This document shows, piece by piece, positions 3,410-64,000 of a stretch of DNA of 64,000 nt (position 1 is the first letter of the stretch; each line of letters starts with the position of its first letter). This DNA is from a virus. Its lineage: Duplodnaviria; Caudoviricetes. The translations under genes and the position numbers were made by a program. A model generated the notes under the pieces. The model searched no databases, was not told the origin of the DNA, and saw only the letters and a list, made by a program, of their open reading frames with translations. The stretch is from IMG/VR virus record IMGVR_UViG_2914081374_000001, positions 1,842 to 65,841 of that record, one strand, 5' to 3'.

Positions 3410-3439
3410 GCCCTACCCCCTGGAAAATTTTCCACAGGG

Positions 3440-4048
3440 TTATACTCGGCTGACTACGCAATCTTCTTCAAATCTTCTCAGGAACTCCCAAGCCTGCTTG
3501 TTCCATCGGGCATCTAGCAATGCATTATGCTCCCCCTTGCCCTGTGACGGTAGCCTGGGATTGCCAAGATAGTCGCAGTACTGCTTAATATCGCGGCAAT
3601 ACATCGGAAGTCCTTTAGGTAAGTCCGACATTGTGCCAAAAAGCTGGCAAAAGGCTACCCAGTCGTAGTCGGCATAATACGCCCACACCTCGGGTGTTAT
3701 TGGTGTTTCAAGTGATTTTAATTCATGATACGAATAACTTTCTATATCTCGTTCAACAACGGGATACTTGATAAATTTCAAAACCTCAAAAGCGATATCG
3801 GCACGCGATCGCCAACCCTGTTTTCTGACTTCCTTCCAATTCAAATTAAACAGATTTGGTCTTTTTGGTAGCTTGGGTAATACGTTTTGTTTCACCCAAT
3901 CCGACGCTTTTGACCAGTCGCAATCATAAGAAATTGCGTAGTATTCACGACCATCTTCGCAAACTACGCCAATGCTTATGATGTCGATAGTTTTACCGTT
4001 CTCTATAAATTCTAAATCCATCCAATAGCGCATAAAGGCATACTCCAT
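3440..4048 (-). CDS. 3'-5' exoribonuclease, DEDDh (Rv2179c-like)
   Basis: DLEF...ISIG, YYADYDW and HNALLDARW motifs. Confidence 0.85.
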   Translation of the reverse strand: MEYAFMRYWMDLEFIENGKTIDIISIGVVCEDGREYYAISYDCDWSKASDWVKQNVLPKLPKRPNLFNLNWKEVRKQGWRSRADIAFEVLKFIKYPVVERDIESYSYHELKSLETPITPEVWAYYADYDWVAFCQLFGTMSDLPKGLPMYCRDIKQYCDYLGNPRLPSQGKGEHNALLDARWNKQAWEFLRRFEEDCVVSRV

Positions 4049-9667: not shown

Positions 9668-10597
9668 CTAGTTTTCTTCTGGTTCGAGTTCGGGTTCTTT
9701 AACAGGGGAAGCGATCGCTTCTAGGTAAGTTTTTGCTCCAGCGACAAGTTTTGGTTCAATCTCTCCGATATTTGCGCCAGGAAAGAACTTTCGGTAAGCC
9801 AAAAATAATTTCTTTCTTAGAGTTGTCCCAAACTCGCTACTGCCTTCAATGAAAGCAGATGCGGCGTCTGTTAAGGTTGTATCCTCAAGCTTGACTTTGC
9901 TGAAGAAGTTGGTAAGAGTTTGCTGAATCCCTTTTTCTGTCAAATTGGGAGATCCGGCATTTTTGCCAGACTTGACGCTGGCAAGGTCATTAATCGTTAG
10001 TTCTTCAGCCAGAATTTTGGTGGATTGCTTTTTTGCTTTTGCTGTCGTCGGTTTGTCATTGGTGGCGGTAGCGGATTCCTGGGTTGTTACCTGCTCTGCG
10101 TCCTTGAAAGATTTAGCCCATCGTAGAACAATTTGGTCGAAATGAGTTTCTGCGATCATCTCGCTTGCGTCCTCTTGCGGGTAGATGACGGCTCCAATCC
10201 TGCCAAGCATCATTTTCACTTCTTTGATTGGCTTGCTCGTTACTCTCGCTAAAGTCTCAATTTTTAAGAGCTTTGATTCTTGCGTAACGCTTTCTTGTTC
10301 TGGCTTCTCGATAATTGCAACCATGCTTGTATCTCCTAAGTTATTTTCTAATTTAGCAACAGGAGTGCCAGCGCGGTGCATGTAAATTTCGTAACCCAGC
10401 AAATTTTTGATTTTTTGAGCGATCGCTTTGGAATTTGCTGCCAGTAAAGAAGCAGTGGTATCGTCTCGATATTTAATCACCAGTATTGCTCTTCCACCCG
10501 CAATTATGAGGTATGGGGTTGTGCAGCACAAGGCAAAGCCGATTTCCAAATCGTCTTCAAAGATACGTGATAGCAGGATAGCATTATCGATTTTCAT
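9668..10597 (-). CDS. Hypothetical protein
   Basis: 309 aa ORF. Confidence 0.7.
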   Translation of the reverse strand: MKIDNAILLSRIFEDDLEIGFALCCTTPYLIIAGGRAILVIKYRDDTTASLLAANSKAIAQKIKNLLGYEIYMHRAGTPVAKLENNLGDTSMVAIIEKPEQESVTQESKLLKIETLARVTSKPIKEVKMMLGRIGAVIYPQEDASEMIAETHFDQIVLRWAKSFKDAEQVTTQESATATNDKPTTAKAKKQSTKILAEELTINDLASVKSGKNAGSPNLTEKGIQQTLTNFFSKVKLEDTTLTDAASAFIEGSSEFGTTLRKKLFLAYRKFFPGANIGEIEPKLVAGAKTYLEAIASPVKEPELEPEEN

Positions 10598-10713: not shown

Positions 10714-11085
10714 ATGCCTAACCTTTACATATTGAAAAACCGCAAAACGATACTGATGGACGACGAAGAAGCTTGGTATAAATGGATATCAAAAGCCACG
10801 GATTCTGGCAAGCGCATTATTGCCTGCAACAGGCTAGACGAAGATTTACTTGTTGTGACAATGTTTATAGGCATTGATGTCCAGGTGCATGAGGGCGGCT
10901 TCCCGCTGCTATTTGAAACAACCATCAATGGCGGTAACTTTGATGGATATCAAAAAAGATTCTCTACTTACGACCAAGCAGAAGCAGAACACGCCAAAAT
11001 CGTGAAGGCTCTTCTCAGGAATCTTAGATCTGTAGAGCTTTTCCCGTGCCGCTTTGAGCAACGAATTAACCAGAACATCAACTGA
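10714..11085 (+). CDS. Hypothetical phage protein
   Basis: V.T.F.GID...PLLFET.I.GG...R..TY..A...H pattern; first gene of a + strand operon. Confidence 0.7.
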   Translation: MPNLYILKNRKTILMDDEEAWYKWISKATDSGKRIIACNRLDEDLLVVTMFIGIDVQVHEGGFPLLFETTINGGNFDGYQKRFSTYDQAEAEHAKIVKALLRNLRSVELFPCRFEQRINQNIN

Positions 11086-11899
11086 CGAGGCACTTATTAA
11101 TATGTGGCTGCACGGGCGTCCGTTAACCACGACAGATGCTTATCGCCGCAGCGTCCAGCACTTTTTGATTTTTACAGGGAAAACGCTTTCTTTGACGGCA
11201 CTAGAAGACTTGCAATCCTACGCCACGCATCTACACAATTCCGGCATAAAGGAGTCTTCCATCCGCACCAAACTTAATTCGATAAAATCCCTTTTCACCT
11301 TCGCGGCGAAACTCAATTACGTCCGCTTCAACGTCGCCGCTGCACTGCGCATCCCCAAAGGTAATTCGTCCCTGGCAGGCAGGATACTCAAGCAGCAAGA
11401 AGTACTGAAACTGGTTAATTGTCCGGGTTTGAGTTTGCGCGATCGCACTCTCCTTAAGCTCATGTACGCTACCGGGATGCGGGTCAGTGAAGCGTGTCGC
11501 CTCAAGTGGAGCGACTTTCACGAGCGGGATTCAGGGGAAGTGCAAGTCACCGTGCTGGGGAAAGGGAGCAAGTTGCGCACAGTGCTAGTGCCAATTGCGG
11601 TGTGGGTGGAGTTGGTGCAGTTGCGGAGTGAGTCCGAGTTCGTTTTTGCCACAACGAACGGTACTGCTATTGATAGAATCATGGCGCATCGGATAATCAA
11701 AGATGCGGCGACTAAGGCGGGTGTGAATTCAAAGGTATCCGCCCATTGGCTAAGGCACTCACACGCCACGCACGCTTTAGCCAAGGGTGCGCCATTGGTG
11801 CTGATACGAGACAGTTTAGGACATAGCTCCATAGCTGTTTCGGATAAATATTTGCACGCAAATCCTACTGATTCAAGTAGCAATTATCTAGGAATTTGA
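11054..11899 (+). CDS. XerC/D-like tyrosine recombinase
   Basis: N-terminal SAM-like domain; TGMRVSE, GKGSK, HWLRHSH, LGHSS and catalytic Y in KYLH. Confidence 0.93.
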   Translation: MSNELTRTSTDEALINMWLHGRPLTTTDAYRRSVQHFLIFTGKTLSLTALEDLQSYATHLHNSGIKESSIRTKLNSIKSLFTFAAKLNYVRFNVAAALRIPKGNSSLAGRILKQQEVLKLVNCPGLSLRDRTLLKLMYATGMRVSEACRLKWSDFHERDSGEVQVTVLGKGSKLRTVLVPIAVWVELVQLRSESEFVFATTNGTAIDRIMAHRIIKDAATKAGVNSKVSAHWLRHSHATHALAKGAPLVLIRDSLGHSSIAVSDKYLHANPTDSSSNYLGI

Positions 11900-26800: not shown

Positions 26801-28581
26801 AAGGAATCGAATTTGCTAATAAAAAAGCCGAAGCGGCGATCGCGCAATCTCAAGTTGAACGCAACATCGCTCTTAAGCAGCGCACCAGGGAAGGCGGTGA
26901 TTTGTTCGGAGAAGCGAACCAGCCAACCGTCGCCCGACTCAGCAATGAGATCGACCAAGATACCAACAGAGCAGAAGCTGAATTAATCAAAACCAAGATT
27001 CTTCAGGTAGAGGAAGAAAGAGACAAGCGAATTATCACAACGAAAGAGGCGACAGAGAAGATCCTCGCCCTTAACACAGAATTGGCACAGAAAAACCAGC
27101 AATTAATCGATCTTGAGATTGATGCTGAGGCGAAATTGCGAGACGAACGGATTGCCGCTGTTGAGCAAGTGCGGCATGTGCAGGAAGGTCGCTTCAAACT
27201 TGCGGTAAACTACCTAGAACAGGAAAAAGCCAACCTCGACCTTTACAATCAAAGTCTTGAGCGCACCGCCAAGCTAGAGGAGTCCCGCTACAATCTAAAG
27301 TTAGCGGTATCCGATGCGGGTATCTCTGGCTTGGATATCCGTAAGGGCAATGCAGATCGCGCACTGGAACTCAGTCGCAAACTCAAGGATGAAAACCTCG
27401 ACCCCAAGGTAGGGCAGGAAATCAAAAGCCAACTGAATTCCCTGGGCTTTGGTGATTCAGAGCTACAAATTCTCGAAAAGCGCAGCCAGATTGAGGACGA
27501 GATTGCAGCCAAGAAGCTGGAGGCGCTGAAAACCGAGCAAGCATACCAACGCCAATCACTGCTACTCGACTTGCAGCGACAGAAGATAGCTGCACAGACG
27601 GCTGTATTTGAAGCAGAATCGGGCAGATTGTCAGCTGCTAAAGCAAGACTGGAAGCAGATTCAGCACTGAGAATAGCCAGCATCAAAAAAGATCCGGTGG
27701 CGATTGAGATAGCAAACATCGAAGTGCAGCTTGCTAACCGTGAAGTCGAACTTAGCGATCGCAGGCTACAATCTGCCCAGGAAAACCTCAACATCCAGGA
27801 CGAGCTTACCAGGAATGCCATCATGGCACAGGAAGCAACCCAAAGGGCAGCAATAGATCAGCAATTAGCAGCTGATAGCGCCAGGAAACAATCAGCGGCA
27901 TTAGAGAAAGTGGAAGCAAGCGCCACCAAGATTTCTTCTGAATTAAAAGACAAGAACTCGAACGGTGGTGAGAGTGAAACGAAAAATCCCAGCGATTGGG
28001 TTAATCCCTTTATTCAAAAACCAGGCGAAGGCTTGTTTGAGTATCATAGCCGCATCGCCCAAGACAAAATCGAAGGAAGAATTATTGAAACCAAAAAAAC
28101 AACCAGTAGTATCGACACTACTGGCTACCATTATGATGAAGCTCTCAACAGGCAACAAGGCAATCCCCCAGCATCCGATTTTGAATTTGGAAAAATCAGA
28201 ACCTATGCCAGCCCAATTATCAAAGCAATGCCGGGTGAGAATATCTTTGAGGCGTACATGCGCCATCGGGATGATTTGGCGCTCACAAGCAACAGTAAGG
28301 CATACGAGCCACTGAATAGCAAGCCCAACGATTTATCAGAAGCATTAAAAGAATCACAAATTAAGCCGAGCGTTACGACAACTGGTTACAGTCAATTTGT
28401 CGATGCGCTCAAGGTTGCCAACTCTGGCATTGAGCAGCGGCTGGATGCACTCAATAATGCAATCCTGACTCTCGCAAATACCCCACGCAGCCTCAGTGTC
28501 AGCACGCCCAATCCCGTGGACGATGCTGCTTCAATCCTCAACGATATTTCACGGGCGCAGGTGTTGGGGGCAGGGTTATGA
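20875..28581 (+). CDS. Tape measure protein
   Basis: 2568 aa; N-terminal VGSVSIELKLD, TMP core QVLSKGKLTAEEVRLQIAERLPGA, long coiled coils. Confidence 0.92.
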   Translation: MTSVGSVSIELKLDRSGFDKEFRALSSEKFEPIPIKLELDTKDFEKQIKGLQGFLEPLVVPIEFDTKGLAKQFKQLKFDCIPICVCPDLECFERELKNLDVEVELKVKFDSQQVRSAVASVAEEIKTQINTTVEIKQSGGGNSDSAGIESAFAKSLDNLFEKQQSANRGDQASKNFVDFTLSPIKAVNSALQSVVTGAFENIGRSITGSLSKSLSEGLDNQIGQTLSDFGKETGKLLGVSGKELGIKGGANQQKNQQQSVAPNANSGLEDLKQNFKTISTTAKNVSDVLQTFGVNIGGAVNAFNKAGNAALSLAGTFSKLQGSASGSTGTNPGKPNATTQGFLTGEIADLTPLQAKAQTELATRKLSAQLAQLKQLPKTEETRSRIAALVREIADIEKRMVIDIANSDLPTAIHRSLGQLKAANSALIKLKNEAARLSLDVNKLTAEPSANVNAPDISLAKRRRRPKDTAKKTNSADDLELRQAESNFRKIFTEIARMSGVQLQRGQIPGLRFGQMPNGVAGLYDPRQNNLNLSQDLRKRLATGTLSREDIDTIAHEARHALQLAFGRIKQADLTKGIKAGVPLTAAKASSKALDIEASVQEYREAFKQKFGKYPPQKLVATIRKLETDAYTFAEQASKEISDNLASILQSQTRRRRSRRKPLSTQLPNEDDIPLAKISANQIRQAIVNNSGVAKAISNPQNRQAVTNALQQIKVPNFSGIITGAKNAVQQTISSIQSGLATAVQKAQSVANRQIQIPTAGIQNLQSQLSASVRGSVSATAQQVQKALNVGARASVPKQAQSSQRASLNPNTSQQAAAYQSGVQGSFWEQLFRKLEARFYRSQMMQSIPSSQRRSLVSEASGFLFSGAALAAPGATFGALLAPLAPAIAPLAVTFGMLHNALQPLIQTIVEALRKLEPAQKRLEFTAGSKEGGKRELAFATGISSDLNTPLLASLEGYSKLSAAAKGTRLEGAKTRELFEGISTASKALQLSQEDLNLVMFAFTQVLSKGKLTAEEVRLQIAERLPGAINIFAKSLGISVQEFNALLESGSLLSEDVLPKVGRGLREQFGQAAKDASGSFLSAVTRVDNAILKLQKGLADAFGSLFAGVANTFGGLIEIAAQNIDKIIQIAGVALIGIGAQFFVGLTTILNGSGITAKLTAALIPLFARAFATLTPFVVGILADFLDDVFGAKFSVMDNMMKGTFNIVLSVILVIDGLIKKISELFSTFSSGAAETQKTTSGIGSIVTALKGVLGIVPSTVVEFTALTLMLIQTATLAKMALGPVIGNLVTSIKALSIAFVDSVKSGRVFQSSLNTLTAGLAKSQLAVFAMTAAVLLFFAKADFSDELGSKFDKLGDRMSESLDRVRDSAKSATDAISKIPSKVPDFKSKGFDLSLGTGEYFGLENGYRTDDAIKTARNATKNPFSAESIIRYGPLLGPLLSKLGNDKKIRTLAENQFDNSLLKVTNQGENIQRIIDQSQLLTGGFSSSNAGKAFAQSQSIDEQIKSLQLQRLDIVSVPGASKDPSNIKAIQDLEKQIEDLQQQREQVIKPIESLRDEILKNSKDLGEAVKIVEEADLPEPAKQELKARLATSIALIDQAKKRLEDLKAIDLSPLGNSFTNIQRQIEKSTIEFDKGVEEREVFKSKAISAIYEQQVQGKITPRQLEVKLKAIDTKDLEVQRTDLTNLLQQRELQMRDLLAVPSPTKDQIEVIEKTQKEIRDKELKLAQVRIQIAQKTTEGKRLAEEQTLKEFTEANEKAMFALQKNENSQIIGIRSQQLLGGKNSEDADTEIARVQSTTAKKELQQAVSELAKFKELRQQGKVNAETSAKQELDLTKQVSSAALKAIEAEIAAREALKQKRIRDIEEIATKEEFGISQKLSASTKQIKAQQLSGKIDDKEASRQSLDADISATQSRIAAKQQEYDRIKKLRAEGTLTTKQYAERERSLLTEVASLEGQLLDQRLSKQQQYREKVLEGIEFANKKAEAAIAQSQVERNIALKQRTREGGDLFGEANQPTVARLSNEIDQDTNRAEAELIKTKILQVEEERDKRIITTKEATEKILALNTELAQKNQQLIDLEIDAEAKLRDERIAAVEQVRHVQEGRFKLAVNYLEQEKANLDLYNQSLERTAKLEESRYNLKLAVSDAGISGLDIRKGNADRALELSRKLKDENLDPKVGQEIKSQLNSLGFGDSELQILEKRSQIEDEIAAKKLEALKTEQAYQRQSLLLDLQRQKIAAQTAVFEAESGRLSAAKARLEADSALRIASIKKDPVAIEIANIEVQLANREVELSDRRLQSAQENLNIQDELTRNAIMAQEATQRAAIDQQLAADSARKQSAALEKVEASATKISSELKDKNSNGGESETKNPSDWVNPFIQKPGEGLFEYHSRIAQDKIEGRIIETKKTTSSIDTTGYHYDEALNRQQGNPPASDFEFGKIRTYASPIIKAMPGENIFEAYMRHRDDLALTSNSKAYEPLNSKPNDLSEALKESQIKPSVTTTGYSQFVDALKVANSGIEQRLDALNNAILTLANTPRSLSVSTPNPVDDAASILNDISRAQVLGAGL

Positions 28582-28713
28582 CCCTATGGAAAATTTTCCA
28601 TAGGGGGTGAGGTTGATTAAGATAAATCAAATTGTTTTTAAGTGCGATCGCTGCTGCCTCCCTCCGTATACTTTGCCAAAATTGAGCCAATTCTATTACA
28701 AAGAGGCATAACC

Positions 28714-41966: not shown

Positions 41967-42037
41967 TCAAGATTCTACCCGCACCCTCTGGAAAATTTTC
42001 CAGGGGGTAAAACCATTTCAATACCAAGATACATCAC

Positions 42038-54221: not shown

Positions 54222-54330
54222 TTGACGCCTCCCCACCGTAAACGGTCGGGGATTCTTTTCGTACTAGGCAAGACCTGGTAGAGGACGCTTACTCGCGCCG
54301 TTCCAAATCCGCAATCTAGCTGGGGTCGCC
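54222..54330 (-). ncRNA. IS200/IS605 right end / TnpB omega-RNA 3' scaffold (5' limit approximate)
   Basis: GAATCCCCGACCGTTTACGGTGGGGAGGCGTCAA hairpin ending TCAA at 54222. Confidence 0.7.
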
Positions 54331-55589
54331 AAAGACCCCCTAGACACTCCGTCAAGAACGAGTCCCAACGTTGTGCTTACTTTACGTAGGCAATTAGCAG
54401 CCCCGTTGCAATCCGCGTTAATGTACCAGTTCAATCCGGTACGGAACAAGCCTCGCTTCACTCTTTTGCCAGATGGTTTGTAGCCTATGGGTTTTTCACC
54501 ATGTTTCGGCAACTCATCTCCATCAACGAATGATGACTTGGACGTGTACGCCTCCTCAGTTTCTACAAACTGGATACCATGCAAATCGCACATTTGTTTG
54601 ATGCGCTCTTTGAGTCTTCCAGTAGGAATTTGTACGAAAGATTGATTTCCTATTTTCCCCATTTCGGTGCGTTGTTTCTGACCTGGATTCCAACCAAAAA
54701 CAACTGTACTAATACCGTTTTCTAAACAATGGTCGATAACTAAGCGAGCAGCTTTATTTACTGCATCACGCATCTGACGATTACGCTTTTCTGTGATTTT
54801 AGCTAATCGGTTATTCCAGAAGTCCGCTTCCTTGCCCTCTTTAATAGTGGCGACTCGTTTGTTGTGCCACTGGTTGATTGACTTAATTTCTAATCCATCA
54901 ACGATGAATGAAGTACCAATATTTGACACGCATGTTAGCCAGTTATCACGTCCGTGGTCAATTCCCAGTGCTTTAGTCTTGTCTAAATTGATGGCTATTA
55001 ACGGTTGTTTTTTGTACGAGTAGACAGCATAAAATTCTCTGTTTCTGGGGATGATGGTTAGTTCGCAGATTTGTTCTGGTTGAATGCCGAACGGGCAAGG
55101 GAGGTAGAGGTATTGAACGCCTTCTAATGCTGTAAGCTCTTGCCCTAGAGGGACACGCACAAACGGACTATCTAGTTCAAAAGTTAAAGCTTGAGCAGGA
55201 TAGGAAACTTGAAACAACCCTCCTTTTTTACGGTATTTGGGTGGTCTTGGTTCCCCATTCATATGCGGCAATTCCCCTTTACGCCACATGAGCAGTAGTT
55301 CTTTAAAACTCTTAAAGCCTTCTGCCACAGATTTCAAGGTTTGTTGCGCAACTTGCGAATATAGTAGCTTGTAGTTTTGCTCATCTTTTAAATCGCCAGC
55401 CAATTGCTCGTAAGAAACGTTTGGTGAAAAGCTTGTAGGATGAGTTAGTTCGTGATTCTTGTGGGTGTAGTAAATAGCTTGATTCCAAAGACTATTTGAG
55501 CGCCGACAAATAAACTCTAAAATATTTGTCTCGAACTCTGGCAGATTAATTCTGATTAATTGAGTTTGAATGATATCTGTCAACAGCAA
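54264..55589 (-). CDS. tnpB: RNA-guided endonuclease TnpB (no tnpA)
   Basis: ALGIDHG..N, EEAYTSK, INAD.NGA.N; N-terminal LWNQAIY, SQVAQQTL. Confidence 0.92.
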   Translation of the reverse strand: MLLTDIIQTQLIRINLPEFETNILEFICRRSNSLWNQAIYYTHKNHELTHPTSFSPNVSYEQLAGDLKDEQNYKLLYSQVAQQTLKSVAEGFKSFKELLLMWRKGELPHMNGEPRPPKYRKKGGLFQVSYPAQALTFELDSPFVRVPLGQELTALEGVQYLYLPCPFGIQPEQICELTIIPRNREFYAVYSYKKQPLIAINLDKTKALGIDHGRDNWLTCVSNIGTSFIVDGLEIKSINQWHNKRVATIKEGKEADFWNNRLAKITEKRNRQMRDAVNKAARLVIDHCLENGISTVVFGWNPGQKQRTEMGKIGNQSFVQIPTGRLKERIKQMCDLHGIQFVETEEAYTSKSSFVDGDELPKHGEKPIGYKPSGKRVKRGLFRTGLNWYINADCNGAANCLRKVSTTLGLVLDGVSRGSLATPARLRIWNGASKRPLPGLA

Positions 55590-55620: not shown

Positions 55621-55715
55621 CTTTGAGTATCTCCAGATCTGGGGCGACCTTTACGTAATGCCTTGCCCTTCGGCTCGGCTACCCAGTAGGTTTTTGTTTG
55701 CTCAAAGTCTATGTC
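55621..55715 (-). ncRNA. Putative structured RNA, copy 1
   Basis: Homologous to 56879-56974 with compensatory base changes. Confidence 0.55.
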
Positions 55716-55753
55716 TTGGTAATGTTCGGAGTGTTGATAACCGAACTCCGAAC

Positions 55754-56083
55754 TTAAGCGTTGAGAGCTTCTTCCATTGCTGAAATTTGTTGTTTCAGCA
55801 ATGCGATCTCCGCTTTGACTTCCGCTTCCTCCTCGTGTTTGGGTAACAGCTTAATATCTTCCTCCCTCACTGTCTCGGTTTCGGTATCCTGCCAGTCGGC
55901 AAGAACTTCGTACCGCCAGCCTGCGCCATCGGTATAACGGCGTCCCAAGGCTGAGAAGCCGGGGTGGTAAGTCATTCCCACAATCCACCCTTGCTGGGTG
56001 AGTCGCCCAAGGCGGTATTTGGGCGGTGTCCAACCGGGTGGGAGTGGGATGGATAGTTTGGTTTGTGGTAAATTGGTGAGCAT
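55754..56083 (-). CDS. DUF1392-like protein
   Basis: LPQTKLSIPLPPGW.PPKY..G.LTQQGWI.GM; start at MLTNLP. Confidence 0.7.
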   Translation of the reverse strand: MLTNLPQTKLSIPLPPGWTPPKYRLGRLTQQGWIVGMTYHPGFSALGRRYTDGAGWRYEVLADWQDTETETVREEDIKLLPKHEEEAEVKAEIALLKQQISAMEEALNA

Positions 56084-56392
56084 GATGTATTTTTTGTTTG
56101 CCTCCCGCGCTTGTTTGGTAATTCGCACGCGGGAGGTTTTTGATTTGGTTTTTGGGCTATGTCGCAAGAACTTGCCCCAAAGTCGGAGGCTTGGGGTAAG
56201 CTGTGACGCAGATTGCTATTTTATTAGTATCACAATGTGTATACTTGTGGCAACAAGTTCTGACTTAACTTGTTGCCCTTAATAAAAGCCAAACCCGTCA
56301 GGTATCTGACGGGCTTTTTGGGGGTGCGGGAAGCGACTTCATCGCTTGCGCTATTTGTTTATGCAGCAGCCTGAGAGAATGGTTCTCCTCTC

Positions 56393-56646
56393 TCAGGCTG
56401 CTGATTTTTTTGTTACTTCATCTTCTAAGACGGCAATTTTACTTTTGAGATGCTCCAGATCGGCATACATCTGGGTTATGTCGGGTATGCGCTTTGGTTC
56501 TTGCGCAAGATACTCTCGCACCCACGCAAGAACTATTTCAGAAGCGTTTTTGCCCTCAGCATCAACTCTTGCCATGAACTCGTCTTTTGTTTGCTTGTCT
56601 ATTCTGACTACCAATCGGTCATCTTTTGAAAGTTCTTGTTTCGCCA
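56393..56646 (-). CDS. RHH (CopG-like) regulator
   Basis: RLVVRID...KDEF...GKNASEIV...VREYL. Confidence 0.75.
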
Positions 56647-56710
56647 TAGTGTTGCACAAATTGCTCCTAACTTATTCTGTCCGATTTTTTGTTATTTTAG
56701 TGCAACATTG

Positions 56711-56739
56711 TTGACACAAGGTATAACACGGTATAACAT
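56711..56739 (+). promoter_or_regulatory. Sigma70-type promoter overlapped by GGTATAACA direct repeats
   Basis: TTGACA-17 nt-TAACAT. Confidence 0.6.
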
Positions 56740-56780
56740 TGTGTTAACAGGCAAAACAAAGGCGATCGCCACTGCCTAGA

Positions 56781-56853
56781 ACTCAACTCGAAACCCTCAA
56801 GCGCAACCAACTCTGGGAAATTTGCTCCGAATTGGGTCTGCCCAAGCACGCAG
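56781..56853 (+). pseudogene. Truncated duplicate of the 5' end of gene 58285
   Basis: 47-nt identity between 56781-56827 and 58306-58352, then decaying similarity. Confidence 0.75.
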
Positions 56854-56878
56854 ATAACGCAAAGTAAACTTATTTATT

Positions 56879-56974
56879 GACCTTGAGTATCTCCAGAACC
56901 GAGGCGGCATTTACGTAATGCTTTGACGAACGTCGCAGCTACTCAGCAGGTTTTTGTTGCTCAAGGTCTATGTC
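56879..56974 (-). ncRNA. Putative structured RNA, copy 2
   Basis: GACCTTGAG...CTCAAGGTC closing stem; inner stems covary with copy 1. Confidence 0.55.
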
Positions 56975-57043
56975 CGAAGATGGCAGTTTAGGGCTGCTTT
57001 CTTTTCGGGGTGATTTGTGTGGGAAATAGCGCACCACCCCCAG

Positions 57044-57367
57044 TTAAAGTGCGTGTGCTATGTCCTCGATTTGACGTTGTAGCAGATTGATTTCTGCTTG
57101 GAGTTCGGCTTTAGCTTCTTCATCCTCGTAAAGCCGGACACTGGATTCTGAGATAATCTCGGTATCTGTTTCCAGCCAGCTACGAATAACCTCGTACTGC
57201 CAACCGGAATTCCGATATGAGTATCCGAGGGCAGAGTACTCTGGGTAAAACCGCATCCCAATAATCCAACCTTGCTGGGTTAACTGCCCAAATTGGTATT
57301 TCGGCGGCGCCCAGTTGGGTGGGAGTGGGATGGATAGTTTGGTTTGTGGTAAGTTGTGAGTAATCAT
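57044..57367 (-). CDS. DUF1392-like protein
   Basis: Close paralog of 55754..56083. Confidence 0.7.
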   Translation of the reverse strand: MITHNLPQTKLSIPLPPNWAPPKYQFGQLTQQGWIIGMRFYPEYSALGYSYRNSGWQYEVIRSWLETDTEIISESSVRLYEDEEAKAELQAEINLLQRQIEDIAHAL

Positions 57368-57681
57368 CTTGGTTTTTGGTGATTAACCGGAGTGTGTTCG
57401 CTGATAACTCGCACACTCCGGTTTTTGATTTGGAGGGCGATCGCGCAACCTATCGCAGGCGCTTTTACCTATCGCAGGTCACTAGCTGTGCGATCGCTCT
57501 GCAATGAAAATGCGATGACACCTATCGCCATCGCACTTAAAAGCTTAACACCGGACTAGCAAAAAATCAAGAAAATTATCTAGAATAAACTCACACGTAT
57601 TAAAAACGCTTCACCCCCTGTCAAGAGGGGGTGAAGTTTTCATTATTTTAAGCATGTTCTCGACTTGGGAGGACATTGCTT

Positions 57682-57996
57682 CTAGCTGGCTTTTAAGCTG
57701 CTTATTCTCTGTTGCCAGTCCGGTTGTAACTCCCCCACGACTTGCTTTAAATCCTCTACTAGGGACATATCCTTTTTCAGTCTTTCCACATCTTCGAGTA
57801 GCTTTGCGATGTCGATTACGTTGCTGGTGATCACCATTTCCCCCACATAATCCCTCATGTGGTTTTCAATGGCATCCGTAATTGAGATACCATCCTCCTT
57901 TAATTTTGCCTTGTACTTATCGTAGAGATCGGCATCTATCTTGATTCCCAGTTGTGCTGTTCGCCCTTGCACTTCGGGTTTTTTGCTTGCAGGCAT
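57682..57996 (-). CDS. RHH-like regulator
   Basis: QLGIKID..LY..YK.KL..DGISITDAIE.HMRDY. Confidence 0.7.
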   Translation of the reverse strand: MPASKKPEVQGRTAQLGIKIDADLYDKYKAKLKEDGISITDAIENHMRDYVGEMVITSNVIDIAKLLEDVERLKKDMSLVEDLKQVVGELQPDWQQRISSLKAS

Positions 57997-58090
57997 ATTT
58001 TTTTACTTGTTCTATCAACAATATACTCTTTGTCCAGATTGATGTCTGTAAAGCCTATTGTACATAGATTTAAAAATATTGATTTTAATA

Positions 58091-58120
58091 TTGACAAAAA
58101 TCTAGAATAATTGCTAGATT
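58091..58120 (+). promoter_or_regulatory. Sigma70-type promoter
   Basis: TTGACA-18 nt-TAGATT in AT-rich divergent intergenic region. Confidence 0.55.
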
Positions 58121-58284
58121 AGATTCAAGAAACAAAAACAAGTAGCGTAAAGCCTTTGATCGCAGCGCAAGCGTAAGTCGAGATGCTGAGCCTAAACTAC
58201 TACCCAAAAACAAGAAGGCGTCCCCTCCGACCAAGAAGCAAGACACCTTCCGTGAACCCTAACCAATAAATAGGATCTAAACCC

Positions 58285-59700
58285 ATGATGACACAATACG
58301 ACCGCACTCAACTCGAAACCCTCAAGCGCAACCAACTCTGGGAAATTTGCTCTCAGCTAGGACTACCCAAGTACGCAGCTTCTGTAAAGTGCGTGGAGGC
58401 AATCCTCAACAGTCAGCCAACGTTAGTCGCCGAAGTGGTAGCAACAGAAACTGACAGCGAATCAACTTTAGATGCCCCTATGGAAAACTTTCCACAGGGT
58501 CAACACACTTGTGCTAGTTGCCCATTATTCCATCCGTTTAACGACGGCACGGGGCGCGGTTTATGTTGCGGTTCCGACCGAGTGGCAAGAGATCATCACC
58601 AACAAACCCAGGATTGCTTGCATTTGATTGAAGAGCAAACTGAAAAGCAGCAAGCCCGCTTAATAGAAGAGCAAGAATCCGAAAAAAGCGCAAAGTCTGC
58701 CACCGGGGAGTATCCCGGTGGCGAGTTTTGCCCAATTCCCGGCTACGGCTTCTGTATAAGCCAAGGCATCGAATTCAAGACTCGAATCGGCAGCGAAACC
58801 GGAACTACCTACTGGTACGCGGTAGCACCCCACTACTACAATCAGAGCGGACGTGAATACAAAACTGGCGGCTTTGAGAAACTGGAAAACGCTGTTAAAG
58901 CCGCAATTGATTACCTTGGTAAGTGTGGAGTTGATGTTTTTGAGATAAAGCAGCAACTGATAAATTACCTGCGATACGGTACAACTCAAGCAGATCTGGA
59001 AGTTACTCAAAGTCAACCACTCGCTGAACCAAGAATTTCATTTCAGTCGGGTGAACTTTTCTTCACCCCAGTGAGCGGCTCCGCCACCACCTACGAGGTC
59101 AAACACTGGAATTTAGAAATTGGCGAAATTGCCATGAATGCCGATCTGATGTGGGAGGTGACAGGTGTTAACGGCATCTACAGGTCGCCCTACGAAGCCG
59201 CAGCACTACTGCTTGAGCTACCCGAAGGAAAATTTTCCACAGGGCTAAACAAAAAAGCCGACTCCCCCGTAGCAGCCAGCCTAATACCTAAATCCGATGA
59301 TTTATCAAGACCTATAGCAGAAAACAAACCTAATCCATCTTTCAACGGATGGCAAGACACGGAAGTTCCTGAAATTGAGATTGACTCTACCTCAGATCCC
59401 GACTTTGGGGACTTGTACCGGGTGTGGAGTGGCATGAATTTGCTTGGAACGTTTTACCAAGGCGTTAGCGATAAAAAGTGGATCGCGCAGATAGATGGTG
59501 AGGCGGAACGCTACTACTGCGACACAGAGCTTGAAGCGCAGTTGCTAATTATTGCTAAAAACGGCTTACTTGTAGCTGACTCGCCAAACGACGTTGACAG
59601 TGTTGACAGCTTGCTTGATAAACCCGTTGACGAATTAACATCTCAAGAATGGCAGCATTTGAAGCGTTATTACTCAACACTAGAGTTGCAAGCAGCCTAA
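58285..59700 (+). CDS. Multidomain hypothetical early protein
   Basis: SAP/HeH-like N-terminus, CASCPLF Cys cluster, C-terminal domain shared with 30487. Confidence 0.75.
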   Translation: MMTQYDRTQLETLKRNQLWEICSQLGLPKYAASVKCVEAILNSQPTLVAEVVATETDSESTLDAPMENFPQGQHTCASCPLFHPFNDGTGRGLCCGSDRVARDHHQQTQDCLHLIEEQTEKQQARLIEEQESEKSAKSATGEYPGGEFCPIPGYGFCISQGIEFKTRIGSETGTTYWYAVAPHYYNQSGREYKTGGFEKLENAVKAAIDYLGKCGVDVFEIKQQLINYLRYGTTQADLEVTQSQPLAEPRISFQSGELFFTPVSGSATTYEVKHWNLEIGEIAMNADLMWEVTGVNGIYRSPYEAAALLLELPEGKFSTGLNKKADSPVAASLIPKSDDLSRPIAENKPNPSFNGWQDTEVPEIEIDSTSDPDFGDLYRVWSGMNLLGTFYQGVSDKKWIAQIDGEAERYYCDTELEAQLLIIAKNGLLVADSPNDVDSVDSLLDKPVDELTSQEWQHLKRYYSTLELQAA

Positions 59701-59768
59701 TACAAGTCCCCAGACGTACTGGGGACTATTCTTCATTAAAATTATCAAATTATCACGTCATTAAAACC

Positions 59769-60293
59769 ATGTCACACCTTACAGAAATTCTTCTTTTGTC
59801 ATCCAATATCGCTCTAATTGCCCTTGTAATCTACCAGCGTAGGTCAATTAAAAAACTCTATCAATGCCCAACTTTTGGATGTTTAACCCGTCAAGGTATT
59901 GACGCTTACTGGCAGTCAATTAAGCGCAAGGATAATTTGTCTCTCGTCTTTCTCGACATCGATAACATGCATCAATTAAACTCCAATCTTGGCTATCAAG
60001 AAGTGGATAGAAGATTGAACCGAATTTTTTCAATGGTTCGCAAGGACGAGGCTCTAGGACGCTGGTACTCAGGAGACGAACTTGTAATGCTAATCAATAG
60101 ATACGAAGCGATGCAAGCCGCTAATCGCCTTAAAACGGCACTTAATGCCGAAGGAATTAGCGCTACCTTTGGTGTAGTAAAAGCAGAAGGTGAATATCTA
60201 TATGACGTGGTTAAAAAGGCTTCCGCTCTGGTTCAAACTTCTAAAAATAAAGGTATTAGAGGAGTGATTGTAAATGGAGAAAACGAACAATGA
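59769..60293 (+). CDS. Membrane-anchored GGDEF-like domain protein (SGDEL variant)
   Basis: LTRQG, LVFLDIDNM..LN..LG..EVD..L, GRWYSGDEL, SATFGV. Confidence 0.8.
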   Translation: MSHLTEILLLSSNIALIALVIYQRRSIKKLYQCPTFGCLTRQGIDAYWQSIKRKDNLSLVFLDIDNMHQLNSNLGYQEVDRRLNRIFSMVRKDEALGRWYSGDELVMLINRYEAMQAANRLKTALNAEGISATFGVVKAEGEYLYDVVKKASALVQTSKNKGIRGVIVNGENEQ

Positions 60294-61240
60294 CGCCAGA
60301 AATTAGAGAAGAATTAAAGCGAATTCAGTCCCAACTAAAAAAACCTTTTCCTGCCAAATTACACGAAATTAGAGATTTACCAGGAGGCGGACGTAAGTGG
60401 GTTTTCCTGTCCTGGCAGGTAATTCGGGAGCGACTAGATGATGTATGCCCAGAATGGATTATTGATTATTCAGAAATCCAATATCTGAACAATGACGCCA
60501 TATGCCGCGCTGCAATCACAATATTAGGAATCCGTAAAGAAGCGATCGCATCCGTGCCAATCTCAATTCTCAGTAAAGGTGGCAATGAGATGTCTCGCGG
60601 CTCGGCTGCTGATCGACTGGCTGCTGAGTCTCTCAAAAACGCTGCCGAACAGTGGGGAGTGGGGAGATATTTGGACGATCAGCTTTTTACAATCAAGTAC
60701 CTCTGGGAGCGAATGAAGGAACTTGACGATCAAATGGCAGGCGAGGTGAGGCGGCTATCCGAGCAATACAAAATTGACAAAGGATTTATAAAGCCCCCAA
60801 TCAGACAGCAAAAAGAAGAGGGCGGACTGCTGCACGCGCTTGCTGGCATTCCCGCACCTGATTCAAAACGTGAAGCTCACGGGACAAAAGATTTTGTCCC
60901 ACAGGCTTCACCTAAAAATTCAACGCAGGACTTGTACCCACAGAATAACCTCGTAGTAAGGCAGGTGCGCAGCGTTACAGGGCACGATGTCAATTGGATT
61001 TATGCCCAATGCAAGCTTTACGAGTGCGATCGCCCAGGTATGATGCCCTCTGACGTGCTAGAAAAACTTGTTGCCGACATGTGTGCTGATTGGGCGGTGT
61101 CTAGTGGTGCAATACCCCAAAGGGACGGAGCTAACACGTCAATCCAAGGCGCTTTGGAATTTGGCAAAAGAACTGGGCAAAGTATTGCCAGCGTGGCTTT
61201 AAACTGGCTAGAAAGACATAAGGTGGAGGTAAAGGCGTGA
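60290..61240 (+). CDS. Rad52/Rad22-like single-strand annealing protein
   Basis: L..PFP, V..RLD.V...W, AESLKNAA..WGVGRYL. Confidence 0.75.
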   Translation: MTPEIREELKRIQSQLKKPFPAKLHEIRDLPGGGRKWVFLSWQVIRERLDDVCPEWIIDYSEIQYLNNDAICRAAITILGIRKEAIASVPISILSKGGNEMSRGSAADRLAAESLKNAAEQWGVGRYLDDQLFTIKYLWERMKELDDQMAGEVRRLSEQYKIDKGFIKPPIRQQKEEGGLLHALAGIPAPDSKREAHGTKDFVPQASPKNSTQDLYPQNNLVVRQVRSVTGHDVNWIYAQCKLYECDRPGMMPSDVLEKLVADMCADWAVSSGAIPQRDGANTSIQGALEFGKRTGQSIASVALNWLERHKVEVKA

Positions 61241-61899
61241 AGATTTTAATTTACGACTGCGAAATTATCAAATGCATCCCTGATAGAAGCGGATATCTTA
61301 AGCCGGGATTCCAGTACTGCGAAGGGTGGACGGACTTTAAAGGGATGGGTATTAGTGTGATTGGTGCATGGTTAAGTTGGGACAACTCCATCAGAATTTA
61401 TACACAAGCAGTGTTTAGCGAGTTTCAAAAAGCTGTAAATCAAGCACAGCTAATCGTAGGATTTAATTCGCTTTCATTTGACGATAACTTGTGCGCTGCC
61501 AACGGCATCGACATCAAAACCGACTATGACCTGTTAAGTGAGGTTTGGTCGGCATCAGGAATGCCGCGAACTTACACCTACGGAAAAACCAGATCCGGTT
61601 ACAAACTGGAGAATTTAGTACAAGCTAATCTTGGGCGCGGCAAGTCTGGTTCTGGGGAGCTTGCGCCGGAGTTGTGGCAGAAGGGGAACAAGTGGGGAGT
61701 GATTCGTTACTTGACCGACGATATTTTGATTACAAAGCAAATATTCCAACGCCGTGCCAAACTAATTGACCCTACAAACGGTGACGTTTTGTGCTTGAGA
61801 GAGCCAACAGAACCAATTTACGAGGGTGTTGGGTTTTTGGAGATGCCCGACACTATCAAGGTTGATGTGAGTGAGGATGGTGATGATATACCGTTTTGA
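61237..61899 (+). CDS. DnaQ/RNase H-like 3'-5' exonuclease
   Basis: YDCEI, IVGFN...FD, YDLL, Y..DD..IT. Confidence 0.8.
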   Translation: MKILIYDCEIIKCIPDRSGYLKPGFQYCEGWTDFKGMGISVIGAWLSWDNSIRIYTQAVFSEFQKAVNQAQLIVGFNSLSFDDNLCAANGIDIKTDYDLLSEVWSASGMPRTYTYGKTRSGYKLENLVQANLGRGKSGSGELAPELWQKGNKWGVIRYLTDDILITKQIFQRRAKLIDPTNGDVLCLREPTEPIYEGVGFLEMPDTIKVDVSEDGDDIPF

Positions 61900-61982
61900 G
61901 CAGTAAGATTGCTCTTGGGCGCAGGGTGTGGCATTCTCCAGAGCGCCCTGCTAAAATATTTTTATCCCTACGAGGGAGTGAA

Positions 61983-62300
61983 ATGAACAAATTAACATCT
62001 GAAAAACTTAAAAGTGGTGCACTAGCCATAGAGAAATTTCGCGCTCTACAAGAGCGTGAACAAGAGTGGTTGTATGAGTTGTTAAGCGTAGGAAAGTCAG
62101 CATTGCTGGCACTCAAGATATTGGATGCAATTAGTGCTTGCCCCCTCAGTTTTGAGGAGATTGCGGACGAATGCGGGTGCAATTCACAAACCGTAAGTCA
62201 AGTTTTAAATGCTTTAATTGAAGGCGGCACGACGATTCAACTAGATGCAAAATGCGCTTATGCCCCCAGTGGGCGATCGCGTAAACTGGCAAGGCGGTAA
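61983..62300 (+). CDS. wHTH protein (paralog of next gene)
   Basis: LSFEEIA..CG....TV.QVLNAL..GG. Confidence 0.65.
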   Translation: MNKLTSEKLKSGALAIEKFRALQEREQEWLYELLSVGKSALLALKILDAISACPLSFEEIADECGCNSQTVSQVLNALIEGGTTIQLDAKCAYAPSGRSRKLARR

Positions 62301-62303
62301 TTT

Positions 62304-62624
62304 ATGGACAAAGTAACAGCGGACAAACTGACAGAAATTGCCCCATCTCTCGCCGCTTTTTTGGAATTGCACCCAGACGAACAAAAGTGGCTTTATCCCC
62401 TTTTGGGGAGAGCAGAGCAGAGAGCAATTCTCATTCTTGAAGCCATGCAGGGGGCGTACTTAAGCTACGAGGAAATCAGTGCCAAAACTGGTACTCATGC
62501 CAGTACTGTTCGGCAAACATTGTACGCTCTTTCTAGCGGTGGACTGAATCTAAAGTCTAATAAATCTGGAAAATGGCAGTCCCCGAAAGGGGGACGAAGC
62601 CGGAAATTATTGAGAATGGAGTGA
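62304..62624 (+). CDS. wHTH protein
   Basis: LSYEEIS..TG....TVRQTL.AL..GG. Confidence 0.65.
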   Translation: MDKVTADKLTEIAPSLAAFLELHPDEQKWLYPLLGRAEQRAILILEAMQGAYLSYEEISAKTGTHASTVRQTLYALSSGGLNLKSNKSGKWQSPKGGRSRKLLRME

Positions 62625-62827
62625 TGGCTAAAAGGAAACTCATATCCGGCGATCGCGTAGAGTTCGTAGGACACGACGCAAACTGCCTTCCCTGCAAGAA
62701 ACAAGGAACCATTCAGATCTATATTTACCCCCACTTTCACCCATCCGGCTATGTGGAAGTGGTGGACGACGAAGGGAATTTGATTCTGTATGGCAATGCG
62801 GCAGGAATAAAGAAAATCAAACCCTGA
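62624..62827 (+). CDS. Small SH3-like hypothetical protein
   Basis: Coupled start; GDRVEF. Confidence 0.5.
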   Translation: MAKRKLISGDRVEFVGHDANCLPCKKQGTIQIYIYPHFHPSGYVEVVDDEGNLILYGNAAGIKKIKP

Positions 62828-62906
62828 TAGGGATTCAAAAAGCTTGCGCCATTAAGTGCATGGGTATTCGTTTCAATCCCTGAGAGGGATTTTTTTGTGG
62901 CGCTAG
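62814..62906 (-). CRISPR. Degenerate two-repeat CRISPR-like mini-array with 19-nt spacer
   Basis: GTTTCAATCCCTGAGAGGGATT (62870) and AAATCAAACCCTGATAGGGATT (62814), 56-nt period; resembles cyanobacterial repeats ending ATTGAAAC. Confidence 0.65.
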
Positions 62907-62911
62907 AGAAA

Positions 62912-64000
62912 TTATATCAAATTGTTGATCGCTTCAAAAAATACTTTCTCGTGAGTAGCGGCATCGATCCAGCGCTGATAAGTCTGTAGATGAACTACGG
63001 GTGAATGCCCCATCCACACAGCCATTGTGGGGATGGGGATTTTGTATTGTGTGGTTCCCCGAATCGCATAGGCGTGGCGTAGATCGTAAGGGCAAAAGCT
63101 AAGGTTGCGACGATTGAAATAATGGCTTACCCGCTGCCCGTAATCGCGGTAAGTTTTGCCACTGCAGTTTGGTTTTTGGATCTGCCACAATTCCCACTCA
63201 ATTGCCCACTGAGGATGTAGGGGATACGCTACTCTCTCTCCTGTTTTCCCATGCAGAATTCTGCATGAGTGGGGTGACACGGGAGAGACTTCGCAGAAGA
63301 AAGCTTCATGATCTCTCAAGCCATAGCACGCCATTACCCCGTATAGCCACTGCCATGCGGGGTTTTGTAGAATTTCACGCACTTCAACAATCAGCTCGTC
63401 GCTGGGAATTTCTCTTGCCTTGAGCGATGATCGCCCGTACTCACCTTTGTAAGGAGAAAGATCGATTTCGATGCCAGCAAACTGCGCGCACGCCTGCAAT
63501 TTCTCTACAGTTCTCTTCCTGGTGCGAGTGTTCGCTTGTGTGGCAGATGCTGCGGTGTGAAGTGATTCAGGCGTTGCGTCCCCAGATAAAAGTTTGAAAG
63601 CTGATTCGTAATCGTTCTTCCAGGTCAATCTTGTAGCGGCAGTGTCACCTTTTGTAGCGAAATAGTTTTGTTCAAATTTGAGCTTGATTGGTTCCCACTC
63701 TGAGACGCTTGACGATACCGCTTTTTCCTCTACGGTTAGATATCTATTCCAATCAAATCTCCCCGCTGCCAATAATCCTCCTACCACCTTCGCCTCGGCT
63801 TCCGCTTGCTGTAGCCCTGCGGGATTGGCATAAATCCCCAGCGATAAGTGTTGCTGGTGCGGCTTCTGCTTCCCACTCCCCGGCTTCGGTGGAAATGTCG
63901 CTCTAAGTGATAGGCGATCGCCCCGTTTGTCAACCCTCACGCCAATTCTCGCTGCTTTTAGTCTCTCATTAACGGCTTCAAGGGTAATTCGCTGGGGCAT
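62912..64000 (-). CDS. int: Phage integrase (tyrosine recombinase)
   Basis: YGLRDHE, GKTG.R, YDLRHAYA, MGHS..VH..TY. Confidence 0.92.
   Translation of the reverse strand: MPQRITLEAVNERLKAARIGVRVDKRGDRLSLRATFPPKPGSGKQKPHQQHLSLGIYANPAGLQQAEAEAKVVGGLLAAGRFDWNRYLTVEEKAVSSSVSEWEPIKLKFEQNYFATKGDTAATRLTWKNDYESAFKLLSGDATPESLHTAASATQANTRTRKRTVEKLQACAQFAGIEIDLSPYKGEYGRSSLKAREIPSDELIVEVREILQNPAWQWLYGVMACYGLRDHEAFFCEVSPVSPHSCRILHGKTGERVAYPLHPQWAIEWELWQIQKPNCSGKTYRDYGQRVSHYFNRRNLSFCPYDLRHAYAIRGTTQYKIPIPTMAVWMGHSPVVHLQTYQRWIDAATHEKVFFEAINNLI

Follow-up and report, generated by a model that had tools for sequence, protein, structure and literature searches.

A prophage of a filamentous cyanobacterium carries a cas-less CRISPR mini-array, a candidate gene for a crRNA-like RNA acting on the host CRISPR system

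RNA anti-CRISPRs and viral regulators resembling CRISPR RNAs (crRNAs; CRISPR, short palindromic repeats, clustered and regularly interspaced) have been shown in Proteobacteria and predicted for Firmicutes and Actinobacteria, and the DR5 repeat family, tied to type I-D systems in the literature, is very common in filamentous cyanobacteria. Here we describe a short element on the minus strand of a 64,000-nt stretch of viral DNA (IMG/VR record IMGVR_UViG_2914081374_000001, positions 1,842 to 65,841; hereafter the window), composed of two DR5-like units, psiR1 and psiR2, around a shortened guide-like stretch. Our preferred reading is that it represents a cas-less, prophage-borne CRISPR mini-array, a ~95-nt gene for a crRNA-like RNA acting on the host CRISPR system, and that its source was the host's own regulatory mini-array, which lies upstream of the large-subunit gene in the type I cas operon. 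The reading as a whole is held with about as much confidence as doubt.

Viral crRNA-like RNAs named Cracr (Liu et al., 10.1101/2024.10.29.618823) have shortened spacers, and in the cases presented at least nine bases next to the protospacer-adjacent motif (PAM) are common with a host regulatory RNA, so that the same promoter is hit. They are given for types V-A, I-F, I-E, I-C and I-B, in Pseudomonadota, Bacillota and Actinomycetota; the main text of that account contains neither 'cyanobacteri' nor 'I-D', and its supplementary tables may list DR5 candidates. Regulatory mini-arrays with cargo genes, including toxin-antitoxin genes, have been described together with phage regulatory mini-arrays (Shmakov et al. 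2023, 10.1101/2023.03.03.530964). Racr elements are solitary, virus-encoded repeat units proposed as decoys for Cas6 and Cas7, with candidates reported for 'almost all' types (Camara-Wilpert et al. 2023, PMC10651486). The I-D Cas6 of Anabaena (7120) cleaves the DR5 repeat of cyanophage N-1, in an account whose accessible sections describe no element of the present kind (10.1101/2020.04.14.041012). RNA anti-CRISPRs and crRNA-like regulators are a known kind, and the portions of the published accounts available to us contain no case from a cyanobacterial prophage.

The prophage element resembles Cracr loci and phage regulatory mini-arrays in its two repeat-like units around a shortened spacer, its lack of cas genes and its cognate type I host and, in keeping with the structural definition of Cracr, it lies on a mobile element outside the cas locus. 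It differs in its seed, the first part of the guide, which is unrelated to that of the host regulator and for which no target was found. Racr-like is the putative repeat mimic with an intact predicted Cas6 hairpin directly behind a promoter motif, in a host with a cognate Cas6 and array; a Racr, in the accessible parts of its description, is a lone repeat, whereas the prophage element has two units and a guide-like stretch (PMC10651486). The array of phage N-1 is of the DR5 family to which psiR1 is similar, resides in a phage of filamentous cyanobacteria and lacks cas genes (Chenard et al. 2016, PMC4916379), and window bases 62866-62895 are 90% identical to it over 30 nt. N-1 has five full 37-nt repeats, four 29-37-nt spacers and a leader (PMC4916379), whereas the prophage has one truncated and one decayed unit, spaced 56 nt start to start vs ~72. 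A host element at C57:119056-119139 fits the CreA/CreR-like regulatory mini-arrays by position, partial seed match and neighbouring genes, and the prophage element is its homolog. The prophage copy differs from this host mini-array in lying outside the cas locus, in a guide 7 nt shorter with another seed, in an array-type handle (GAAAC vs GAAAA) and in having no separate terminator hairpin.

The first unit, psiR1 (CACAAAAAAATCCCTCTCAGGGATTGAAAC, element A; Table 1), starts 12 nt past the stop codon of an integrase-like recombinase gene and folds at -7.8 kcal/mol (z -2.6). It aligns with positions 8-37 of the Rfam CRISPR-DR5 model (RF01318) at 33.4 bits (E 0.014), short of the gathering score of 40, since the repeat lacks its 5' 7 nt and has unrelated sequence in their place. 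The 34-nt inter-unit stretch consists of a variable seed followed by 20 conserved nucleotides; the latter could belong to the second repeat, as its 5' part, or to the spacer outside the seed. These 20 nt are identical at 16/20 positions to the host mini-array (L009 10497-10516) and at 14/20 to that of a related genome, G348; to the 5' part of the true array repeat of another, G021, identity is 9/15. The second unit, psiR2, has a decayed 3' arm, no handle and a T-T mismatch in the canonical stem, gives no Rfam match at E up to 10, and runs into a U-rich tail that is the probable 3' end of the RNA. With two units, the second of them decayed, the element is no canonical CRISPR array of at least three regular, near-identical repeats with normal spacers, and its unit spacing compares with 70-76 nt in host arrays. 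The initial annotation had read two CRISPR-like units downstream of the integrase on the minus strand, and the sequence reads as written there. Its 19-nt spacer (62851-62869, the seed plus the next 5 nt) comprises the first 19 nt of the inter-unit stretch and presupposes a full 37-nt second repeat; of the two hairpins that it lists, that of psiR1 has stem and handle intact and that of psiR2 is the weaker, with its mismatched stem and weak fold.

A predicted extended -10 promoter, ending 20 nt short of the first stem, overlaps the stop codon of the recombinase gene and gives a predicted transcription start near A62904. The underlying motif, TGNTATAAT, occurs once in the window over both strands (shuffles average 1.62 per window), with a chance expectation of about 5e-4 in a 40-nt stretch.

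The seven arrays of the host genome, hereafter G000, belong to four repeat families and together contain 268 spacers. The largest, 118 repeats of GTTGAAATTTCCTAAAATCCCTATTAGGGATTGAAAC on contig C57, adjoins a cas operon that includes Cas6, and psiR1 is identical to the 3' part of this repeat at 22 of 24 positions, keeping the handle and differing in two loop bases. The host possession of this repeat family, on which the initial annotation had relied, is thereby borne out. A scan of the 9.5-Mb genome with the 18 specified bases of ATCCCT-N3-AGGGATTGAAAC, loop free and up to two changes allowed, returned 127 occurrences, comprising 122 in two arrays (C57, 119; C46, 3) and five single ones. The window copy alone is exact and the reversed-pattern control gave no match, which excludes chance. 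Outside arrays, DR5-type hairpins stand at two convincing places in the genome, the cas-locus mini-array and the prophage. Solitary DR5-like sites on C49 and C72 were rejected as mini-arrays, neither having a second hairpin and the former looking coding.

The host cas operon (C57:108600-118558, on stretch L009) runs on the minus strand in the order large subunit, Cas7, Cas5, Cas3, Cas6, Cas4, Cas1, Cas2 and array. The Cas6 gene is located at C57:110865-111710, and the genome has two other Cas6 genes. The host mini-array lies upstream of the large-subunit gene in divergent orientation, within L009 10357-10540 (C57:118956-119139), and is composed of ATCCCTATCAGGGATTGAAAA, 41 nt, AATCCCTATCAGGGATTGCC and a separate terminator, next to genes for a WYL/WCX-type regulator and a HepT/MntA pair. 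Homologs of the large-subunit gene occur in 20 of 389 family genomes; 16 loci were examined (four partial ones were left out), and at seven of them a DR5-like hairpin is likewise placed upstream of the Cas8b-like gene and divergent from it; the G348 locus contains a complete two-hairpin unit. The G000 and G348 guides are near-identical apart from their first 7 nt. At 11 of 12 positions, with position 6 the exception, the G000 mini-array seed agrees with a site 118 nt upstream; this site is in the promoter region of a small open reading frame (ORF), after which comes the large-subunit gene, and 8 of 200 shuffles reach 11/14 in the same 6-kb region. The mini-array of G299, with a different guide, has a 10/11 match 149 nt upstream and that of G348 has none above 8/11 at its locus, both without shuffle control. 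Host seed and target covary at two of the three loci tested (G000 and G299). From these comparisons the host mini-arrays look functional, and that of G000 is likely an autoregulatory crRNA-like RNA.

The prophage element appears homologous to this host mini-array beyond what the array repeats alone would give, a relationship that the alignments make close to certain. psiR2 with six upstream bases, TTTTTGAATCCCTATCAGGG, finds a single non-self match in the genome (20/20, E 2e-4), which is the second hairpin of the host mini-array. Outside the 14-nt seed the two elements are identical at 49 of 55 positions, the seed and its aligned host counterpart at 4 of 14, and the prophage copy is shortened by a 7-nt deletion. 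Among 81 related genomes, the 25-base pattern CAANNTTTTTGAATCCCTATCAGGG (23 specified, up to two changes) occurs in two: at the prophage element and the host mini-array in G000, and in the array repeats and the mini-array of G021.

Two host spacers match the prophage, indicating that the host met this phage lineage earlier and that the resident copy differs at several positions. Spacer 9 of the DR5 array is the only one of the 268 with a BLAST E below 1e-4 against the island. The second match, to a spacer of family R4, has mismatches mostly at every third base and is, judged by that pattern, the trace of a diverged phage relative; in an ungapped scan of all 268 spacers, the scores after these two are at most 26. 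As a separate observation, spacer 17 of the C14 array, in a second repeat family, matches a dispersed palindromic repeat at many chromosomal sites (19-30 nt, up to 100%) and is either self-matching or drawn from the dispersed repeat.

In the proposed mechanism, the RNA would be transcribed from its own extended -10 promoter, to which recombinase read-through may add. Host Cas6 would bind the first hairpin and cut at its 3' base, leaving a product with the handle AUUGAAAC at the 5' end from A62877, a shortened guide and a 3' hairpin with U-tail, ~56 nt long to the second stem, the length estimated in the initial annotation, or ~70 nt into the U-tail if Cas6 cuts as in array repeats. This RNA would load into Cas complexes in competition with host crRNAs and the host regulatory RNA for Cas6 and subunits of Cascade (CRISPR-associated complex for antiviral defence), and the resulting short, non-cleaving complexes would inhibit the CRISPR system that remembers this phage lineage, protecting phage and lysogen. 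A decoy or re-targeted-guide role is suggested by the intact handle, the dedicated promoter, the conserved scaffold with swapped seed, the host memory of the phage and the published precedents. Both hairpins probably also terminate the convergent genes.

Table 1. Features of the mini-array and its surroundings, in window coordinates
Feature	Position	Strand	Description
Predicted extended -10 promoter	62911-62919	-	TGATATAAT; overlaps recombinase stop codon (TAA 62914-62912)
First repeat-like unit, psiR1	62870-62899	-	A-run; 7-bp stem AATCCCT/AGGGATT (62891-62885 / 62881-62875); loop CTC; 8-nt handle ATTGAAAC (62877-62870)
Inter-unit stretch, 34 nt	62836-62869	-	GAATACCCATGCACTTAATGGCGCAAGCTTTTTG; between psiR1 and psiR2
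Variable guide seed, 14 nt	62856-62869	-	GAATACCCATGCAC; immediately 3' of handle
Conserved 20 nt	62836-62855	-	TTAATGGCGCAAGCTTTTTG; common to cas-locus mini-arrays
Second repeat-like unit, psiR2	62806-62835	-	AATCCCTATCAGGG at 62835-62822, then U-rich tail TTTGATTTTCTTTATT
Integrase-like tyrosine recombinase, 362 aa	62912-64000	-	ATG at 64000; open frame, stop just upstream
67-aa ORF	62624-62827	+	Convergent on mini-array; last gene of plus-strand operon 58285-62827
Protospacer	10363-10397	-	31/35 match to spacer 9 (cas-proximal count) of host DR5 array, first 18 nt exact
Diverged protospacer	62360-62398	-	29/39 match to a spacer from a further host array, of repeat family R4 on contig C83

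A variant, in which the guide has been re-targeted, is improbable in our judgement. Here the host autoregulatory scaffold would be kept and its seed swapped, and Cascade carrying the short non-cleaving guide would silence an abortive-infection or immunity gene of the host or of a rival; the one PAM-like 12-nt match, a candidate site, falls at the start codon of a HicB-like antitoxin gene. This site (C80:72521-72535, GTC followed by GAATACCCATGC) is the longest anchored seed match in the genome, and the ORF encodes 59 aa (Pfam, 27.8 bits). If true, such a guide would also titrate the host regulator away from the cas promoter, and the system would be the first of its type from a cyanobacterium and the first whose seed bears no relation to the host regulator.

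Several results weigh against a viral crRNA-like RNA. The 12-nt match at the HicB-like gene is not significant, since 16 of 300 shuffled guides do as well, and a seed scan with position 6 left free yielded one match against 1.13 expected and one for the reversed guide. In the host cas promoter region the best seed match is 9/14, the mode of the shuffles. The GTN filter of these scans corresponds to what we take to be the type I-D PAM, an insecure choice, and a PAM is not derivable from the DR5 spacers, only one of which has a genome match. The prophage seed is common to none of the seven host mini-arrays, and the element has neither at least nine shared PAM-proximal bases nor a PAM-flanked match in a cas or toxin promoter; by the published Cracr definition it is not a viral regulatory crRNA-like RNA, and it fits the looser definition of an RNA anti-CRISPR. 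The host system itself is type I of ambiguous subtype: Cas1 passes the NCBIfam 'type I-D Cas1d' cut-off with 448 bits and the best Cas3 model is I-D, whereas PADLOC names the effectors Cas8b, Cas7b and Cas5b (1123, 443 and 429 bits), which are type I-B assignments. psiR2 folds weakly and in a shifted register (-5.3 kcal/mol, z -0.44), no better than shuffles.

The lack of sister copies counts on the same side. Exact 21-mers of the 34-nt stretch have no match in IMG/VR, and two metagenome scans with its exact words gave 0 and 0, so no other phage copy was seen there; such scans with 21-23-mers would miss diverged targets. Twelve IMG/VR matches to TTTTGAATCCCTNNNAGGG were rejected as further viral psiR2 units, none having a first unit upstream, and are chance or coding. 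The sole other copy is decayed and chromosomal, a 61-nt stretch 84% identical to the element on contig C888 of genome G103 (L068, the single record from a scan of genome contigs, carries the same stretch and was counted as one occurrence with it). Its guide is conserved, with one change in the first 24 nt and a seed identity of 11/11, but its hairpins have both decayed. The copy is not part of a cas locus; it sits on the chromosome in the gap that separates a hydrolase gene from HepT/MntA, adjoins a 59-nt fragment resembling the SocA gene of the prophage, and looks like the debris of a related element. The G103 genome gave no repeat family matching this copy, its odd handle GGGACTTAAAG occurs at one site only and does not covary with local repeats, and guide-target counts in G103 equal the control (51 vs 53).

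The remaining target searches bear on another explanation, in which the element is an inter-phage weapon, a one-spacer mini-array turning host Cas proteins on a competing phage or plasmid in superinfection exclusion. Viral mini-arrays mostly target related viruses (PMC11656645, in its accessible parts), cyanophage N-1 carries a transcribed DR5 array (PMC4916379), and such a role has been proposed for the N-1 array and demonstrated for archaeal viruses. In 50,697 phage records the only item similar to the element is the repeat of the N-1 array, and no protospacer was found there, in IMG/VR or in the metagenomes (exact 21-23-mers in the latter two). A 24-mer search with up to three changes through the 389 family genomes returned only G000 itself and the G103 copy, which is homologous and not a target; BLAST of the 34-nt stretch against the host's own genome gave nothing longer than 14 nt. 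The guide is also short for this purpose, 19 nt if the second repeat is complete and at most 34 nt, vs 33-38 nt or more in host arrays, and we regard a weapon as unlikely. The search against host cas promoters and other phages that the initial annotation had proposed ended with the 9/14 match and no phage protospacer. Of its RNA anti-CRISPR or silencer proposal, the first part agrees with the small-RNA-gene anatomy, the homology to the host mini-array and the published classes, and the silencer has no significant target.

The position of the element suggests a plainer role. It occupies the 84-nt gap separating the recombinase gene from the convergent plus-strand operon, whose last stop codon (62825-62827) sits in the psiR2 loop, and it could be a relic of a host mini-array, captured by recombination and now serving as terminators only, with no Cas dealings; psiR1 with its T7 would end the plus-strand operon and psiR2 with its U-tail the recombinase gene. 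We consider this relic possible, at clearly lower probability than an active mini-array. Read on the plus strand, psiR1 forms seven pairs followed by T7, is listed as terminator-like and has the G+C-rich hairpin and U-run of an intrinsic terminator. psiR2 on the minus strand is absent from the terminator scan, its shifted stem having fewer than three G-C pairs, although its tail is U-rich. The absence of targets and of other phage copies and the decay of the second unit are as expected of such a relic. Among 29 other loci with recombinase homologs (41-65% identical), a DR5-like unit occurs only in L041 (recombinase 41% identical), where it is solitary, antisense and placed between the recombinase gene and a tRNA gene; none of the 11 loci at 54-65% identity has a DR5-like hairpin downstream of the recombinase. 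An ordinary palindromic hairpin of the GAAAAATTTTTC type stands at the same position in three of these 11 (L016, L024 and L025), which suggests that a terminator is all the position needs and is a further point against an active mini-array. The homolog loci without DR5 hairpins indicate that this lineage acquired the mini-array and placed it where a terminator was needed.

Other features sit poorly with a relic reduced to termination. The intact 8-nt handle and the perfect extended -10 element firing into the unit would be superfluous for a terminator, and DR5-type hairpins are not general terminators in this genome, given their two convincing non-array places. A palindrome of the prophage's own, in 10 copies, was available for the job, and overall the terminator scan performs at chance level (three found, 2.8 expected).

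The initial annotation had also offered the element as the core of an attP (phage attachment site), with host CRISPR arrays as the integration target. The window corresponds to C13:123248-187247 in a 9.5-Mb filamentous cyanobacterium genome of 134 contigs, and the carrier is a prophage or island of ~70.9 kb inserted at tRNA-Val(TAC) (C13:187400-187472), which lies beyond the window, 152 nt upstream of the recombinase gene. The island is bounded by a direct repeat, 47 nt from the 3' part of tRNA-Val, whose far copy is at C13:116578-116624. The element does adjoin the integrase gene, and L041 offers a comparable arrangement; the mapping of the attachment ends to the tRNA-Val repeat refutes an attP core, the element is single, without a second CRISPR-like copy at the far end, and the island has no flanking array. 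We leave this reading barely a trace of probability.

The integrase label given in the initial annotation was confirmed at the level of predicted structure. The recombinase has no sequence match in Pfam, PHROG, NCBIfam or PDB; its AlphaFold model, built with 12 homologs, has a pLDDT (predicted local distance difference test) of 85.3, and the top Foldseek matches are all tyrosine recombinases, led by XerA (E 4e-6) and followed by lambda Int, Cre and Tn1549 Int. R-H-R-Y motifs were spotted by eye. On this model the assignment as a tyrosine recombinase holds, and homologs occur in 266 of 301 family genomes. A convergent Rad52-like module lies near the recombinase in some homolog loci as well, and IMG/VR contains no prophage relatives with the Rad52-like protein.

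On the converging side, the plus-strand operon includes two small helix-turn-helix (HTH) proteins and a GGDEF (diguanylate cyclase) ORF at 59649-60290 (Pfam E 2.7e-9). Its 67-aa terminal ORF was considered as an anti-CRISPR protein and rejected, with no family match and only viral hypothetical clusters in the atlas. A third DR5-like hairpin, ATCCCTACGAGGGAGTGAAAT, two changes from the motif, is located at 61964-61984 (+), 900 nt from the mini-array and on the opposite strand (chance expectation ~0.003 in the window). The hairpin and the start of a small HTH gene overlap, at the ribosome-binding site and probable ATG (61983), and Cas6 bound there would affect translation of that gene.

PHROG-named genes of the prophage comprise portal, large terminase, major head protein, tape measure and an endolysin-like protein, together with a sigma factor, anti-repressors, a Doc toxin with SocA-type partner, ParB and an IS605-type TnpB. 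A second, conventional integrase gene (phrog_1, E 4e-45) lies mid-prophage at 11054-11896 (+), adjoining the portal/terminase region. The window holds no cas operon, as the initial annotation stated, and only a TnpB-like gene (OrfB_IS605 with a Cas12f-like TNB domain), inserted at 54267-55589 (-); partly repeated segments occur near it at 55623-58390 (direct repeats D4-D6). The prophage palindrome, CCNNNGGAAAA[T/C]TTTCCNNNGG, has all 10 of its copies in the 9.5-Mb genome within the prophage, mostly at gene ends, spanning window positions 3413-59250 (for example 3413-3445, 28579-28611 and 41981-42013). It may be a phage-specific terminator or regulator site, and the similar GAAAAATTTTTC hairpin follows the integrase gene in related prophages.

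Beyond this lineage, 23 IMG/VR contigs contain the DR5 3' half (20 once, two twice and one five times). L065 has the same geometry as the prophage element, with repeat, 34 nt, decayed hairpin and terminator, and L055 a similar one with 42 nt between units; L056/L064 have a Phage_integrase gene with a solitary DR5 unit ~550 nt downstream of it, and in L048 a DR5 unit is near a Cas1-like gene. In nine loci (L043-L047, L049, L051, L053 and L063) a solitary DR5 unit with loop ACT resides inside a long inverted repeat, GGCCCACAACAGCTAA ... TTAGCTGTTGTGGGCC, which is a different, conserved packaging of a repeat mimic. L050, L052 and L054 have a solitary DR5 unit between ~35-nt direct repeats, CTTTTCTTGCCATGCCTAGCAT.CGTGACAAGA, as insertion of the unit, or its duplication along with the target, might leave.

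If a crRNA-like RNA gene is the correct reading of the mini-array, the known range of RNA anti-CRISPRs and viral crRNA-like regulators would come to include the DR5 family and temperate phages that infect filamentous cyanobacteria, with a clean natural example of a conserved scaffold carrying a swapped seed. Its compact design, with a promoter inside a stop codon and hairpins doubling as convergent terminators, could guide the construction of small guide-RNA cassettes. The phage copy and the host original reside in one genome, in which the host array remembers the same phage, so the arms race between them would be testable in a single strain.

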